From a virus (taxonomy: Duplodnaviria; Heunggongvirae; Uroviricota; Caudoviricetes), in the IMG/VR virus record IMGVR_UViG_2579778753_000003: a stretch of DNA of 41,460 nt; one strand, given 5' to 3'. The stretch's first letter is position 1. Each line of letters begins with the position of its first letter. The position numbers and the translations under genes are program-made. Shown piece by piece: positions 3,379 through 8,976 of the stretch. The notes beneath the pieces are model-generated. The model was not told the DNA's origin, made no database searches, and saw only the letters and a program-made list of their open reading frames with translations.

Positions 3379-3582
3379 ATGGCAATTAAGCATTTTCCTG
3401 TCGTTCGTTTTACCTCCAGAGGGCGTGAATACGAAGTCGACGAACGCCTGATTACCACAATCGACAAACACCGTTCAGAAAAGGATGCACATCACATCTA
3501 TCTCACTGACGGCACTTACTTCTGCGCCACGAATGTGGTGCGGGTGAACCTTATCCGACAGGTACAGGAGTCACGCAGATGA
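3379..3582 (+). CDS. Hypothetical early-operon protein
   Basis: 67-aa ORF with GGAGG upstream. Confidence 0.5.
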   Translation: MAIKHFPVVRFTSRGREYEVDERLITTIDKHRSEKDAHHIYLTDGTYFCATNVVRVNLIRQVQESRR

Positions 3583-3824
3583 CCATTCTGGACTATATCG
3601 CCGCCAATCCGGGGTGTAGCGGTGGAGAAATCGCCGCAGCACTGAATACCCCAACCACAGCCATTAATGCGGAGTTACGCCGACTCTGGCGCAGCGGTTC
3701 AGTCATAAGAAAAGAGCGCAAAACAGGCGGTCGCTTTTCTTACCAGATAAACCCGATGCCGTTCGGGTGCGGCAATCCACTTACCAACACGTTTAACCAG
3801 CTACTGAAGGAAGCCAGAGCATGA
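3579..3824 (+). CDS. Small winged-helix-like DNA-binding protein (putative)
   Basis: 81-aa ORF; MTILDYIAANPGCSGGEIAAALNTPTTAINAELRRLWRSGSV resembles a winged-helix fold; overlaps neighbours by 4 nt. Confidence 0.5.
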   Translation: MTILDYIAANPGCSGGEIAAALNTPTTAINAELRRLWRSGSVIRKERKTGGRFSYQINPMPFGCGNPLTNTFNQLLKEARA

Positions 3825-4120
3825 GCACCATCAACCACCAGAAGCTACGCGAACTGGCATTTGCCCTGCAACGAATGGCAACGCCTCAAAAATTACTGGC
3901 ATTTCGCGCAATGCTCTCGCCGTCTGCTGTGCTGGCACTGCTGAATGAGCTGGAGCACGCCAGAACCACGGCTCCTGCCATTCGCCTGACGCTCCATCAT
4001 GAAATCGCTGATTTCTGCGCGACGTTGGAGGCGCCGGGCGAACCGGAAACGCCGGAAGCAATACAGCAAGAGCTGCTGCAACGCATTGACAAGGTTTTTG
4101 ATTTTTTTCTGAACCAGTAA
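3821..4120 (+). CDS. Hypothetical early-operon protein
   Basis: 99-aa ORF, translationally coupled to the previous gene. Confidence 0.5.
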   Translation: MSTINHQKLRELAFALQRMATPQKLLAFRAMLSPSAVLALLNELEHARTTAPAIRLTLHHEIADFCATLEAPGEPETPEAIQQELLQRIDKVFDFFLNQ

Positions 4121-4243
4121 GAAACCAGAACATGCACACACAAAAAAACCGCTTGCCATGCCGCAATCAGTCAGGTTACATTTCCGCTGCACCTCATAAA
4201 ACGGGTGCCGGGATTTCCACCCCGCTGACAACTACAGCGCACA

Positions 4244-4263
4244 ACCGCGCCAGCGGTTTTTTT
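4244..4263 (+). terminator. Possible short intrinsic terminator
   Basis: accgc-gcca-gcggt hairpin followed by a T7 run, about 125 nt after the 3821-4120 gene. Confidence 0.3.
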
Positions 4264-4442
4264 GTGCGTACTGTATCGCCACGTCTTTTTCGCACACGAA
4301 TTATGGTGGGGCGTACGGGGCCGACTTCGGTCGGGCCGGGTTCTGTAGTTGCCGGTTGTGGAAACCCTGTACGTCTCACCACCCCGAGTTTTCCACCTCT
4401 GGATGGTGAGTTTTCAAAACTTGCAACTACAGAGGCCACACC

Positions 4443-4673
4443 ATGGCAAACCGCAAACAGCACCGCGCTATCGCGGAGCGTCGTCACATCCAGACTGAAA
4501 TCAACCGCAGACTTTTCCGCGCATCACGCGTCGCGCAAATCATGCACATCAATATGCTGCATGAGCGCAGCCACGCACTATCAAACATCTATTCCGCCGC
4601 TGTTTTCAGCTATCTGGCGGATGATCTGCACGAGCTTCAACAGCTCATCCAGCAGCAAAACAAACTCCATTAA
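4443..4673 (+). CDS. Hypothetical small protein
   Basis: 76-aa ORF (MANRKQHRAIAERRH...), co-oriented with the early operon. Confidence 0.45.
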   Translation: MANRKQHRAIAERRHIQTEINRRLFRASRVAQIMHINMLHERSHALSNIYSAAVFSYLADDLHELQQLIQQQNKLH

Positions 4674-4745
4674 TTCCTGTTCCGGGCCTTTCCTGCACCT
4701 TGCGGCGGGAGGCCTTCGCACATCTGTAACAAGAGGATTGCCGCA

Positions 4746-5111
4746 ATGATTCTCGCCAACGACTTTCTTGAATACCTGCTCAACACAGAGCGTGATCTTG
4801 CCGTTCGCGTGCGTGAACGTTATGACATGTACCTGAAATCCCTGCCTGTACCGCAGCTCGCTGACGGAAAGATTGTTATTGATGGTCGCTACATGATTGA
4901 CAGCCACGAGGGAAATTACAGGCTTTACCGCATTGAAGGTGGCACCCCGTCCGTTATTGGCATTTACCAGCGCCCATCCTCTGCAATCGTCGATGTGATT
5001 GCCGACAGCATCCGCATCACACATCGCCATGCCGACCCAGAAGACACCGTGCTGGAAATTCAGCGGCTGGCTACAGTCTGCCGCGACACCCTGAATGGCA
5101 TGACGAAGTAA
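4746..5111 (+). CDS. Hypothetical protein upstream of replication gene
   Basis: 121-aa ORF ending 7 nt before the replication gene. Confidence 0.55.
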   Translation: MILANDFLEYLLNTERDLAVRVRERYDMYLKSLPVPQLADGKIVIDGRYMIDSHEGNYRLYRIEGGTPSVIGIYQRPSSAIVDVIADSIRITHRHADPEDTVLEIQRLATVCRDTLNGMTK

Positions 5112-5117
5112 ATCACT

Positions 5118-7940
5118 ATGACGGCAGAGTACATCAGGGACTGGCAACAACCGCGCCACGCAGTGGGGCGTGAAGGAACGGGGATCCCCGCTCCTGAATC
5201 CGCACTTTCCTCCTGGCTGGATGCCTACCGGGTAGAGAACGAGCGCCGCCAGGAAATGGCTGATGCGGCGTTCTCCGCCACGCCGCTGGGCAACCTGATT
5301 AATAAAAGCCTGGACGCACAGGAAAAACAGGACAAAACCATCACACTGGCAGGAGACGCCAGAAAACAGGCACGCGGCGCAGTGGATGAAGCCATGGCCT
5401 CGCTGCGCCTGCTGCCGTCCTATCTGCGCGATCCGCTTATTCGCCACCTCTCCTTCCTGCGCAAAAAACAGGAAGCCGATCGCCGGAAAGGCAAAAAGAG
5501 CTGGCAGGCGGAACGCTATGCACGCGGAACCCTGCGCAAAATATTCGAACGTCTGGACCGCACCGATCACCGCTGGCTGACACCGGGTTATCGCTCCCTT
5601 GCCGGACGCGAACGCCTGGACGATTTGCTTTACCTGCCGCAGCTCAACAAACACCAGATACAGACGCTGGCCACCATGACGGCGGCGATGTTCAGCAGCA
5701 CCTTCGAAAAACTCTGCGATGGCTTTGGCGCGACCGATGGCGAGCTGACCATGGATGTAACGCTGAAGGCGTATCAGATGCTGGCCCGCATGGCGTTACA
5801 CCTGCACGCCATGCCTCCACATTATGACGCACTGACAACAGACAAAGACCGGAGGAACGAACCAGACACGGAGCTGCTGCCGGGCGCAATCCTTCGCCTG
5901 ACCTGTGCGGAATGGTGGAAACGCAAACTGTGGCTGTTACGTTGCGAGTGGCGGGAAGAACAACTCCGCGCCGCCTGTCTGGTTTCCAGAAAAACATCGC
6001 CCTATCTGAGCCAGGACGCGTTAAGCGAGTTTCGCGCACAGCGCGAGAAAACACGCGATTTCCTGAAAAGTTTCATGCTGGAAAATGAAGACGGGTTCAC
6101 GATTGATCTCGAGACGGTGTATTACGCGGGAGTAAGTAACCCGGTTCACCGTAAGGCAGAAATGATGGCCACCATGAAGGGACTGGAACTTCTGGCCGAA
6201 GCCCGTGGCGACAGAGCGGTGTTTCTGACCGTCACCTGCCCGTCAAAATACCACGCAACAACGGAGAACGGTCATCCGAACCCCAAATGGAACGGGGCCA
6301 CCATGCGCGACTCTAGCGATTACCTGGTTAACACGTTTTTTGCGGCGGTCCGCAAAAAACTGAACCGCGACGGCCTGCGCTGGTATGGCATCCGCACGGT
6401 GGAGCCTCACCATGACGGCGCTGTGCACTGGCATATGATGGTCTTTGCACATCCGGACGAGATTGAAACCATCGTGTCCCACGTCTGCGATATTGCCATT
6501 CAGGAGGACCGCCACGAGCTGGGCGATGACATAACTCCGCGTTTTAAGGCGGAGTATGTCGACGGCTCAAAAGGCACACCAACCAGCTACATCGCCACCT
6601 ACATCGGAAAGAACCTGGACAGCCGCGCCGTGGATGGCATCGACCCGAAAACGGGCAAGCCACGCGTTGACCACGAAACCGGAAAATCAATGGCCGAGAG
6701 CGTGGAGCGCGCCATCGGCTGGGCGCGCCTTCACCGGGTCCGTCAGTTCCAGTTCTTTGGCATCCCCTCCCGTCAGGTGTGGCGTGAACTGCGCCGCCTT
6801 GCCAGCCAGATGGCACGCAATCCGGAAGGCCCGCAACGGCTGAAAGATGATGCAATGGATGCGGTACTCGCTGCCGCCGATGCCGGGTGTTTTGCCACCT
6901 ACATTGAAAAACAGGGTGGCGTGCTTGTTCCACGCAAGGACTACCTGATTCGCACCGCCTACGACCTCGCAGATGAGCTGAACGATTACGGCGAACAGAG
7001 CGTACAGATTTACGGGATCTGGTCACCACTCATCGGGGAATCCTCCCGTGTGTGCACGCATCCGGATAACTGGAAGTTGGTAAGACGTAAACCAGAACCA
7101 GAAGACAACGCCCACGAAAATGGTTTTGACCTTCAGGGCGGCCCTGCCGCCCCTTGGACTCGTGGCAATAACTGTCCCCGTGTACAGGAAACGGACAACA
7201 ACGGGACAGAACAGCCGGAAGAACGGCCAGCACCGTGGCCGCAGCTCCCTGACGGCGTTGAAGTGAACGAATGGATGCGCTCACTGAAACGACACGAACG
7301 CCGGGCGCTGATGCGTTCGCTTCGTGACAAACAGGCAAAAAACAGCAGCGATGAAATGCAGAGCTGGACACAGAGCCGCAAACAGCAGCGGCCTTTGCCT
7401 GATAACCACGAATTACTCGCTAAAGAATGGCGGGAGTCTGCTGAATCTCTCGGCCTGCATATCGGTGAACAACAGATGCAGCACCTGTTACGGGGCGGCA
7501 GTCTGTACGTTGACGGCAGCATCATTGCACCGCAGGGATTTGAAATTGTACGCAAACCGGATACCCGCCCGGACAGCCGAATCACGCAGCTCTGGCAGCG
7601 CCTGAGCCGTAATCACGGCGTAAGCAGCACGGAGATCCGCCATAACCCGGTCTCCAGCTATCTGGCACAGCTCGGGGCATCAGACCCCGAAGCCGCCGCA
7701 CGCCTGGCATCCACACTTCAGCAGGTCCAGAACACCATGAAAACACCCGTTACCGTGCTTTCTGACATGCTGCGCGCCATTCGTGACGCAGAGCACGCAC
7801 AGAGAATCAGAGAAACCACTGAACGCGCCCGCCGCAAAGCAAACCTGCTGAGGGCTGGCCTGACCAGTGGAAACAAAAAACAGACAGAAACGGGATTCAC
7901 AAATCCCGTAAATGAGCAAAAAACGCGCCGCGATATATGA
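5118..7940 (+). CDS. Rolling-circle replication initiator (HUH endonuclease, P2 gpA-like)
   Basis: 940-aa ORF with an HUH-type motif (GAVHWHMMVFAH) and a paired-tyrosine motif (TSYIATYIGKN). It is longer than the 761 aa recalled for P2 gpA. Confidence 0.8.
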   Translation: MTAEYIRDWQQPRHAVGREGTGIPAPESALSSWLDAYRVENERRQEMADAAFSATPLGNLINKSLDAQEKQDKTITLAGDARKQARGAVDEAMASLRLLPSYLRDPLIRHLSFLRKKQEADRRKGKKSWQAERYARGTLRKIFERLDRTDHRWLTPGYRSLAGRERLDDLLYLPQLNKHQIQTLATMTAAMFSSTFEKLCDGFGATDGELTMDVTLKAYQMLARMALHLHAMPPHYDALTTDKDRRNEPDTELLPGAILRLTCAEWWKRKLWLLRCEWREEQLRAACLVSRKTSPYLSQDALSEFRAQREKTRDFLKSFMLENEDGFTIDLETVYYAGVSNPVHRKAEMMATMKGLELLAEARGDRAVFLTVTCPSKYHATTENGHPNPKWNGATMRDSSDYLVNTFFAAVRKKLNRDGLRWYGIRTVEPHHDGAVHWHMMVFAHPDEIETIVSHVCDIAIQEDRHELGDDITPRFKAEYVDGSKGTPTSYIATYIGKNLDSRAVDGIDPKTGKPRVDHETGKSMAESVERAIGWARLHRVRQFQFFGIPSRQVWRELRRLASQMARNPEGPQRLKDDAMDAVLAAADAGCFATYIEKQGGVLVPRKDYLIRTAYDLADELNDYGEQSVQIYGIWSPLIGESSRVCTHPDNWKLVRRKPEPEDNAHENGFDLQGGPAAPWTRGNNCPRVQETDNNGTEQPEERPAPWPQLPDGVEVNEWMRSLKRHERRALMRSLRDKQAKNSSDEMQSWTQSRKQQRPLPDNHELLAKEWRESAESLGLHIGEQQMQHLLRGGSLYVDGSIIAPQGFEIVRKPDTRPDSRITQLWQRLSRNHGVSSTEIRHNPVSSYLAQLGASDPEAAARLASTLQQVQNTMKTPVTVLSDMLRAIRDAEHAQRIRETTERARRKANLLRAGLTSGNKKQTETGFTNPVNEQKTRRDI

Positions 7941-7998
7941 AGCGCGCACAAAACAGGCGAAAGCGGGATTTAAAAATCCCGTAAACGGTTAATTAACC
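7868..7998. repeat. Two ~35-bp imperfect direct repeats, each with a palindromic core; candidate centromere/operator (or origin)
   Basis: cgggattcacaaatcccgtaaa at 7891-7912 (inside the end of the replication gene) and cgggatttaaaaatcccgtaaa at 7964-7985, with similar upstream flanks; ggttaattaacc palindrome at 7987-7998; parM-like start at 8017. Confidence 0.4.
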
Positions 7999-8016
7999 AA
8001 CATAAGGAAAATCGAC

Positions 8017-8976
8017 ATGAAAATTTGTATCGACGACGGCTCCACCAACATCAAGCTGGCATGGACTGAGAATGGCGAACGCCGCAACGCCATCAGCCCG
8101 AACAGCTTCAAGTCGGAATGGTCTGCGCCGTTCGGTGACATGCAGCCCGCGAACTACATGCTTGATGGCGTGCGCTATGGTTTTGATCCGGTCAGCGATC
8201 GCTTTGTCCAGACGACCGACACGCAATACCAGTACAGCGATGTGAATGTAATCGCCATTCATCACGCGCTGGTCAAATCAGGCATCACGCCACAAGAGGT
8301 GGATGTGGTTGTCACCCTGCCACTGAGCGAGTATTTCGAGACAAACGCACAGCCGGACATGGCCAACATCAACCGCAAAAAAGCGAACGTTATGCGCCCG
8401 GTGGAATACCAGAACGGCGAAGCATTCACTATCCGTAACGTGCGGGTTATGCCTGAATCCATTCCGGCTGGCTTTAAAGCACTGGCTGACATGAGTCCGT
8501 TTGAATCCCTGCTGATTGTGGATTTAGGCGGAACCACGCTGGATGTGGCAAAGGTTCAAGGGCAACTGGCAGGTATCAGCCAGGTGTTTTGCGATCCACA
8601 CGTAGGCGTTTCCCTGATGGCCGATGCCGTACTGTCGGTGATGGCCACTAACGGTATGCGCACCAGTCACCACATCGCCAATACCATTATCGAACATCGC
8701 CATGATGAAGCCTGGCTGCGCCAGCACATCCACAATGACGCGCATTACGCCAGCCTGATGGCGGTTATTCGTGAAAAGGAAGAAACACTGAAACAACGCG
8801 TGATCCGCGCGCTGGCGGTTTTTTCGGGTTACGGGCGGGTGATGGTTGTCGGTGGAGGGGCGGAGATTGTGGCACCCGCTATCCGCGAAGTCTGCGGAGT
8901 TAATGCGACTTTCATCGCGGACGGGGTGCCACAGTTTGCTCTGGTTAATGGGCTGTACGCAATGGACAAGGAGTAA
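8017..8976 (+). CDS. parM: Actin-like partition ATPase, ParM/StbA family
   Basis: MKICIDDGSTNIKLAW..., TLPLSEYFETNAQP...RKKANV..., LIVDLGGTTLDVA..., VMVVGGGAE match the recalled ParM/StbA of plasmids R1 and R100. Confidence 0.8.
   Translation: MKICIDDGSTNIKLAWTENGERRNAISPNSFKSEWSAPFGDMQPANYMLDGVRYGFDPVSDRFVQTTDTQYQYSDVNVIAIHHALVKSGITPQEVDVVVTLPLSEYFETNAQPDMANINRKKANVMRPVEYQNGEAFTIRNVRVMPESIPAGFKALADMSPFESLLIVDLGGTTLDVAKVQGQLAGISQVFCDPHVGVSLMADAVLSVMATNGMRTSHHIANTIIEHRHDEAWLRQHIHNDAHYASLMAVIREKEETLKQRVIRALAVFSGYGRVMVVGGGAEIVAPAIREVCGVNATFIADGVPQFALVNGLYAMDKE

Follow-up and report, generated by a model that had tools for sequence, protein, structure and literature searches.

A probable antisense-RNA immunity cassette precedes an epsilon-like antirepressor gene in the early operon of a P2-like prophage

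The early operon of the P2-like prophage in IMG/VR virus record IMGVR_UViG_2579778753_000003 (41,460 nt; this whole stretch is referred to as the window in the rest of the text) is interrupted at positions 4121-4442, between the stop codon of an Ead-like open reading frame (ORF) and the ATG of a gene coding for a homologue of epsilon (E), the antirepressor of P4. A first-pass annotation, made from the letters alone, had singled out this interval as a gap without a convincing ORF and had suspected a structured or regulatory RNA in it. Both observations held: the ORF that spans the gap (4132-4749) lacks a coding signature, and a covariance-model scan with Rfam placed two curated RNA genes, isrK and C4, inside it. 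Since the recognition elements a' and b' of the C4 RNA are complementary to two sites in the IsrK-type RNA (a1 and b1) and again to one site ahead of the next ribosome-binding site (a2) and one overlapping it (b2), we propose that the interval is probably a self-contained immunity cassette of the antisense-RNA type known from P1 immI and P4 immunity, and that it would block translation of the epsilon-like antirepressor. The proposal is built on the membership of both RNAs in known families, their structures, these complementarities, covariation across phages, the linkage to an epsilon-like gene and the homology of its product to P4 epsilon. Escherichia phage P88 (Peduoviridae, Xuanwuvirus, P2-like) is 97% identical to window bases 3500-8000, and the chromosome of Escherichia coli strain 4/0 matches the 640 bases 4121-4760 at 100%.

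Scanning the whole window with Rfam at curated thresholds returned exactly two matches, both inside the 4121-4442 gap and on the + strand: isrK (RF01394) at 4189-4263 (63.6 bits against a gathering threshold of 50, model positions 1-77 of 77) and C4 antisense RNA (RF01695) at 4299-4386 (80.5 bits against a gathering threshold of 45, model positions 1-87 of 87, E = 2.3e-14 over the whole window). The IsrK-type RNA consists of two hairpins, a single-stranded spacer and an intrinsic terminator, which is the last of its three stem-loops. This terminator (4243-4263, +), recovered by a terminator scan and in the Rfam structure, comprises AACCGC-GCCA-GCGGTT at 4243-4258 with T7 at 4257-4263, and it is what had been described from the letters as a terminator-like hairpin with a U7 run. 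The minimum free energy (MFE) fold of C4 (-45.3 kcal/mol) shows a long closing stem, 4305-4321 with 4365-4383, around two hairpins (both +), the first at 4321-4334 (ccgac-UUCG-gtcgg) and the second with a stem formed by 4335-4339 and 4352-4356. Two further features of the first-pass annotation, the ccgac-ttcg-gtcgg hairpin and a flanking long-range complementarity, thereby found their place as the first inner hairpin and the closing stem of C4, respectively. All the sequence features listed in that annotation were present at the positions given there. From alignment to the annotated 77-nt C4 of P1, the mature RNA is predicted to extend over ~4305-4383 (~79 nt).

A sigma-70-like promoter candidate on the + strand (4153-4182, consensus scan), with a -35 hexamer TTGCCA (4153-4158), an 18-nt spacer and a -10 hexamer TACATT (4177-4182), ends 7 nt upstream of the isrK match, whose first base is 4189, and this putative promoter would make RNA synthesis begin at about that base. 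Neither hexamer varies among 8 P88-like loci, two of which have an unrelated upstream flank. Despite a tRNA-like ACCACC end, ARAGORN detected neither a tRNA nor a tmRNA. By eye, no LexA box (CTGT-N8-ACAG) was seen in 4100-4450, where no formal scan was made, and only a half-site was present at 4267-4273.

The two recognition elements of C4 are b' (TCTGTAGTTGC, 4342-4352, +), in the loop of the second inner hairpin, and a' (GTGGAAA, 4358-4364, +), in the single-stranded junction. Their upstream complements both lie in the IsrK-type RNA, a1 (TTTCCAC, 4214-4220, +) in the loop of hairpin 2 and b1 (CAACTACAG, 4229-4237, +) in the single-stranded spacer. Downstream, a2 (TTTCCAC, 4390-4396, +) is found 4 nt after the end of C4, and b2 (GCAACTACAGA, 4423-4433, +) overlaps with its 3' end the Shine-Dalgarno sequence AGAGG (4431-4435), itself 7 nt before the ATG at 4443. 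Watson-Crick complementarity extends over 11 nt for b'-b2, 9 nt for b'-b1 and 7 nt for each of a'-a1 and a'-a2. Along the entire + strand of the 41-kb window, the 9-mer CAACTACAG was found at b1 and b2 only, and 20,000 shufflings of the flanks never gave all four complementarities to the C4 loops together. Predicted b'-b2 duplexes range from -15 to -23 kcal/mol for cognate pairs and from -6 to -16 kcal/mol for non-cognate ones. The distance from the end of C4 to the start codon is 54-58 nt in diverse loci and 48 nt in P1, and the geometry of b2, Shine-Dalgarno sequence and start codon is kept (12 loci). The 272-nt leader folds more stably than shuffled sequences (z = -4.6), and its MFE fold as a whole pairs b' and a' with b2 and a2 in cis and buries the Shine-Dalgarno sequence.

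We also observed that the 5' stem strand of C4 recurs, as a conserved copy TGGTGAG, between a2 and b2 (4404-4410, +); this copy complements the C4 3' strand at 4375-4381. This third complementarity covaries: the corresponding sequence is GGTGGTAGC in N15, GGCGATAGC in P4 and GCGGTGG in Stx2 phages (locus L034 and phage P13374). Through this copy, an alternative hairpin with a2 exposed in the loop could arise.

For comparison between phages, loci were taken from BLAST and covariance-model matches. Viral contigs were also scanned with a degenerate DNA motif of the C4 core, but this motif was discarded as a source of loci, as nearly all of its 32 hits were chance occurrences and only one (L008) was a genuine C4. 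The isrK-C4 tandem is present in 12 other loci, 11 from phages (including N15, ST64B, cdtI, Stx phages and a Yersinia phage) and one from an IMG/VR contig. Conservation of the hairpins in related phages, with compensatory changes, had been named beforehand as a check on a functional RNA, and this is what the alignments revealed. Fifteen of the 27 consensus pairs of the C4 scaffold carry compensatory double changes (18 loci), including 4 of the 5 pairs in the stem of the first inner hairpin, as do 7 of the 16 consensus pairs of the IsrK scaffold (16 loci). The interacting sites vary together as well, a1 with a' in every locus examined. Across 17 loci of diverse phages, the complement between b' and b2 averages 8.9 nt in cognate and 4.6 nt in non-cognate combinations; the corresponding values are 7.1 and 4.2 nt for a'-a2, 7.0 and 4.4 nt for a'-a1, and 7.5 and 4.6 nt for b'-b1.

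The same pattern was found at short range. In 8 P88-like loci that are otherwise 80-94% identical, 33 of the 52 columns in the six interacting sites are variable, compared to 61 of 241 columns elsewhere (Fisher P = 3e-7). A larger set of 91 P88-like loci yielded 14 parsed a'/b' combinations, with 11 different b loops and 5 different a junctions; in 13 of these combinations each of the four targets is an exact complement. Reading two further loci by eye raises the number of specificities to at least 15. Among these loci, a and b modules reassort. In the Shae_phiSM type, b2 reads CAACCAAAG where the window has CAACTACAG. In P1 and P7, a few a'/b' bases that covary with their targets set the specificity of heteroimmunity, and the diversity of P88-like a'/b' elements reproduces this pattern on a larger scale. 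One locus (L130, IMGVR_UViG_2537561977_000015, ~3857-3944) has a b' loop, GTTCTGCGTTTG, that is seemingly one base off its own b1 and b2, a variant that may represent immunity escape or decay.

The gene whose start b2 adjoins (4443-4673, +) codes for a 76-amino-acid protein with homology to P4 epsilon. It matches the Pfam family PF25738 ('Derepression') with 31.8 bits against a cut-off of 27, a family to which P4 epsilon itself scores 170 bits, and it aligns by BLASTP with P4 epsilon at 29% identity over 66 amino acids (E = 2e-8); it also matches phrog_3688 (E = 3e-46). No similarity was found between this protein and Icd of P1. The reading frame has a clear coding signature, as synonymous changes make up 34% of codon differences in frame and 7-9% in the other frames. 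Public collections yielded 83 epsilon-like loci, and in every one of them a single C4 ends 57±1 nt before the ATG. Wherever the flanks are complete (62 of 62 loci), a P2-type replication gene A follows, and the P4 alpha primase gene is absent from all 83. These counts describe close relatives: the scan of genome contigs with the single 76-amino-acid protein retrieved three close relatives only, and in the alignment-based viral scan all of the best 80 relatives were at least 92% identical, with more distant epsilon-like contexts falling outside the sample. In other phages, the gene that follows C4 codes for a Rha-type or P22-type antirepressor or for an Icd-like protein.

From these features we infer the following course of events. 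The promoter at ~4153-4182 would fire with a start at ~4189, and the majority of transcripts would end at the U7 terminator, giving a ~75-nt IsrK-type RNA that carries a1 and b1. Transcripts reading through the terminator would hold C4, which would be excised as a stable ~79-nt RNA; the C4 RNA of P1 is processed by RNase P. The b' element in the hairpin loop and the a' element in the junction would then pair with b2 and a2 just downstream, be it on the precursor itself (in cis) or on any mRNA copy (in trans). As b2 reaches into the Shine-Dalgarno sequence, this pairing would block ribosome binding and leave the epsilon-like antirepressor untranslated, and the folding model suggests that the unprocessed transcript could silence itself through cis pairing of b' and a' with b2 and a2. 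Since the IsrK-type RNA carries both target sites, it may act as a decoy: short IsrK would titrate C4 and relieve the block, which fits the activation of an antirepressor by IsrK in the Salmonella prophage Gifsy-1. The a and b sequences would set specificity, such that a resident prophage would silence an incoming antirepressor only if the two share the same specificity.

Several steps have precedents. In P1, C4 represses the synthesis of Ant (PMC8546580). In Gifsy-1, the isrK promoter drives the downstream gene, the IsrK terminator is leaky and its read-through is needed for the C4 region and the downstream mRNA, and this read-through mRNA is translationally silent until IsrK supplied in trans activates it (PMC4825925). 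As for the output, P4 E binds and thereby inactivates the C repressor of P2, in which Thr67 is the site of the E-insensitive sos mutation (PMC2995052). By analogy, the 76-amino-acid protein may bind a P2-type C repressor. The repressor resident in the window is a P2 C homologue that keeps the threonine equivalent to Thr67, a residue that is not conserved in other relatives. Asadulghani et al. noted an epsilon-like gene in the O157 P2-like prophage Sp13 and reported that mitomycin C induces Sp13, in contrast to P2; the two RNAs are not mentioned there (PMC2669165). The main text of a Hfq crosslinking and immunoprecipitation (CLIP) paper on enterohaemorrhagic E. coli mentions neither Sp13, isrK nor P2-like elements.

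A number of observations weigh against this proposal or restrict it. First, epsilon-like alleles and resident repressors do not go together among the relatives in which both were compared. Between the window and P88, the epsilon-like proteins are 100% identical and the RNA cassettes identical, with C repressors that share only 32% identity; extending the comparison of the window from P88 to two more loci (L055 and L056), the cassette and epsilon-like gene are 95-100% identical where the repressors are 32-48% identical to one another. In an O157 relative (strain 350), the repressor gave no significant alignment to P2-C-type repressors. Near-identical cassettes next to divergent repressors suggest that the cassette recombines independently of the C/Cox immunity region. 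With allele and resident repressor uncoupled, self-derepression is uncertain and the cassette appears as an autonomous module; the target of the epsilon-like protein might be broad, might reside in another prophage or might be something else. Second, the promoter candidate matches the consensus at 9 of 12 positions, and 0.8 such sites are expected by shuffling in this region. Third, the cassette lies inside an operon driven by the upstream early promoter Pe, whereas the cassettes of P1 and P4 head their own operons, and transcripts from Pe would have to pass the IsrK terminator. Fourth, the Gifsy-1 study takes the C4 region to be mRNA in which an 'orf45' is translated, not a repressor acting in trans, and the overexpressed C4 region of Gifsy-1 did not repress (PMC4825925). 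Finally, phage 520873 has no cassette, and such relatives indicate that the cassette is dispensable for the P2-type switch. When 520873 (1830-1852) is compared with window positions 3830-4630, the Ead-like gene, both RNAs and the epsilon-like gene except for its last 43 nt are gone, as they are in 503458; the arrangement in 520873 looks like a deletion derivative.

The attenuator before the replication genes that the first-pass annotation had suggested stands as far as a regulatory leader is concerned. A generic attenuator does not, since a' and b' match a1/b1 and a2/b2 and the direct target is the epsilon-like gene; the suggestion of a cis-acting DNA site gained no support. A more specific version deserves consideration, in which pairing of C4 at a1/b1 and a2/b2 of nascent early transcripts, together with the IsrK terminator, terminates transcription before the 121-amino-acid ORF and gene A as in P4. 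Such a device would be a second RNA-based immunity gate on replication, like the CI RNA on the alpha operon of P4. It is compatible with antisense control of the antirepressor and may be an additional output of the cassette, although we consider it rather unlikely. The CI RNA and the seqA leader of P4 match the same two Rfam families, an intrinsic terminator at 4243-4263 is located within the operon, and gene A is invariably found downstream in the related loci with full flanks. A block on translation of the first cistron also commonly gives Rho-dependent polarity, as established for icd-ant of P1, and it is possible that silencing of the epsilon-like cistron lowers transcription of the 121-amino-acid ORF and gene A. 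CI acts via premature termination through pairing of seqA and seqC (summarised in PMC4825925). On the other hand, no terminator-like site was found on the + strand in 4443-5200, leaving the IsrK terminator as the only one found, and the position of b2 on the Shine-Dalgarno sequence points to translation as the primary contact. Moreover, the arrangement around gene A is unchanged in relatives without the cassette, which argues that replication control is independent of it.

The model proposed for Gifsy-1, taken literally, fits this locus poorly and we regard it as improbable here. It would make the C4 region part of a silent mRNA, in which a small ORF from the AUG of AAUUAUGG (4303) is coupled to the downstream gene and IsrK serves only as an activator that refolds the mRNA. 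The model has Salmonella genetics and structure probing behind it (PMC4825925), an AUG is present at the equivalent position (4303-4305), and the leader does fold closed in cis. However, the frame opened at 4303 runs to 4749, across the entire epsilon-like gene; as it does not stop near the next start codon, the coupling architecture of the orf45 type is absent. This frame has no coding signature, and a later review of the Gifsy-1 study noted that even in orf45 the nucleotides are conserved and the amino acids vary. The region scores 80 bits on the C4 model with 15 covarying pairs, and a stable processed RNA (STnc1160) comes from it even in Salmonella (PMC4825925).

That the gap instead encodes a protein, the 'Ash family' ORF at 4132-4749 (+), with incidental hairpins is hardly credible: its 205 codons are open in 6 of 8 relatives compared (the other two being ~10 codons shorter) and it passes the Pfam family Phage_ASH (PF10554) with 27.2 bits, barely above the cut-off of 26, but its synonymous fraction is the lowest of the three frames (14% vs 21% in each of the others), it overlaps the epsilon-like gene out of frame over 231 nt, it lacks an upstream Shine-Dalgarno sequence, as already remarked in the first-pass annotation, the spacers between isrK and C4 (35, 24, 25 and 107 nt across phages) do not differ by multiples of three, and the P4 ORF that anchors the Pfam family is the old 'cI protein' frame over the CI RNA. 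In P4, PF10554 matches that obsolete ORF (8168-8584, -) with 59.7 bits, and it also matches positions 1201-1464 of another locus (L050). As the frame has no coding signature, PF10554 was probably modelled on translated RNA genes.

The antisense-RNA cassette is widespread: it was found in 1,294 of 5,426 complete E. coli genomes (~24%), including ST131, UTI89 and O157:H7. Six RefSeq E. coli records were inspected and none annotates either RNA; the interval is empty in five, and the sixth has a partial 'ash family protein' coding sequence (CDS), marked as a pseudogene, over it. One GenBank record of an Stx phage does annotate both RNAs. In PhiR49_2, cdtI, Stx2a_WGPS2 and ST64B, annotated CDSs of ~850-1160 nt start ahead of isrK and read in frame across both RNAs and on into the Rha-type antirepressor, labelled 'hypothetical protein' in PhiR49_2 and 'transcriptional regulator' in the other three; the true start in all four is most likely the ATG 55-58 nt after C4. 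Other RNA families turned up close by, namely sRNA-Xcc1 (79.6 bits) in the O104:H4 Stx phage P13374 (3523-3606), under an annotated 'antB2' CDS, and ryfA (134.6 bits) in Yersinia phage vB_YpM_39 (1149-1447), near the cassette. A record with a Firmicute label, NZ_JBQPOM010000071.1 ('Vagococcus sp. WN89Y'), contains an enterobacterial C4/epsilon-like module with 88% amino-acid identity, so this assembly is probably contaminated or mislabelled.

P2 is the textbook non-inducible temperate phage, and epsilon of P4 is known as the weapon with which a satellite derepresses it. A very common P2-like prophage lineage carrying its own epsilon homologue, under what would be antisense control of the P1/P4 type, offers a testable route to induction of P2-like prophages and to cross-talk between them, and bears on heteroimmunity among phages with common structural genes and on gene exchange between helpers and satellites. 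A wider scenario can be sketched, which we advance as speculation and hold to be doubtful as a whole. P88-like phages would possess a second, RNA-based immunity layer, independent of C/Cox, in the form of a cassette shared with the P4 satellites that parasitise them. The at least 15 recombining a/b specificities would stem from an arms race of co-infecting P2-like phages and satellites. IsrK would be a dedicated C4 sponge, and the IsrK:C4 ratio, set by read-through of the terminator, would decide the synthesis of a broad antirepressor and hence the induction or cross-induction of P2-like prophages and, by polarity, expression of gene A. If true, this second layer would account for inducible P2-like prophages of the Sp13 type, in contrast with non-inducible P2.

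The genes that surround the cassette are those of a full P2-like phage. An integrase gene (1-1020, -) and the gene for a P2 C-type repressor (1102-1476, -; 37% identity to P2 C) are followed on the opposite strand by cox (1536-1823, +) and a series of small early genes, also on the + strand. The last ORF before the interval is the Ead-like one (99 amino acids, 3821-4120), whose stop at 4120 bounds it on the 5' side. Downstream of the epsilon-like gene, and in the same transcription unit, are an ORF of 121 amino acids of unknown function (4746-5111, +), which has no similarity to P4 orf151, and the P2-type replication gene A (5118-7940, +; Pfam Phage_GPA, E = 1.5e-128); an NCBIfam search gave no match for the three ORFs at the locus. 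Gene A of the window codes for 940 amino acids, of which ~178 precede the GPA domain, compared to ~760 amino acids (a 2,286-nt CDS) for A of P2. Behind gene A lies a segregation gene of the actin-like ParM type (8017-8976), which is unusual for an integrating P2-like prophage; P88 also has ParM, plus a partner partition gene. With its P2-type int, C, cox and gene A, the element is not a P4-like satellite, which would be marked by alpha primase, sid, psu and delta.

The RNA families and the type of regulator are known, and it is their context inside a P2-like early operon that is hardly described; we found no description of an isrK-C4-epsilon arrangement in a P2-like phage in the literature searched. 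The closest parallels are with immI of P1 and the immunity region of P4. P1 shares the RNA family (its C4 scores 68.8 bits on RF01695) and the order and spacing of a1, b1, C4 with a' and b', a2, b2, Shine-Dalgarno sequence and start codon, which in P1 is that of icd. The gap between C4 and a2 is 4 nt in both, and b2 lies ~10 nt before the start in both. The output of P1 immI is an antirepressor, and that of the window would be, by homology, a relative of the antirepressor epsilon. The two differ in the leader, as P1 has c4-a1b1 (RF03163) ahead of C4 and the window has the three-hairpin isrK-type RNA with its own terminator, which is the counterpart of both the a1b1 leader of P1 and the seqA leader of P4. 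They also differ in gene content, with Icd first in P1 and the epsilon-like protein first in the window, where no Ant1/2 gene follows. In addition, P1 immI heads its own operon under a C1 operator, whereas the cassette of the window is embedded in a P2-type early operon.

P4 shares both families, as its CI RNA scores 74.9 bits on the C4 model and its seqA leader 60.8 bits on the isrK model. As in the window, a CI-type RNA sits between two complementary sites, with epsilon and then replication genes downstream; the P4 order is PLE, seqA, CI RNA (seqB), seqC, epsilon and alpha. However, CI is followed directly in P4 by an Icd-like ORF (kil/eta region) and epsilon starts ~245 nt further on, whereas the epsilon-like gene of the window starts 57 nt after C4. 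The replication gene is the alpha primase in P4 and a P2-type A in the window, and the scaffold sequence of the window C4 is nearer to the lambdoid and P1 versions than to that of P4. Most importantly, P4 is a satellite, whereas the window contains a full P2-like phage, the type of helper that P4 epsilon normally attacks.

The isrK-orf45/STnc1160-anrP locus of Gifsy-1 in Salmonella is ordered in the same way: an IsrK-type RNA whose terminator is leaky comes first, then a C4-type element, then an antirepressor gene. The locus differs in being part of a lambdoid prophage, in its antirepressor, AnrP, in the antiterminator AntQ acting downstream in the cascade, and in the orf45 coupling frame, which has no equivalent in the window. 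The anti-immunity locus of N15 and the lambdoid cassettes of Stx phages, ST64B and cdtI combine the same isrK and C4 families with a start codon at 54-58 nt and differ in their cargo, which is a Rha-type or P22-Ant-type antirepressor or an Icd-like peptide in place of the epsilon-like protein.

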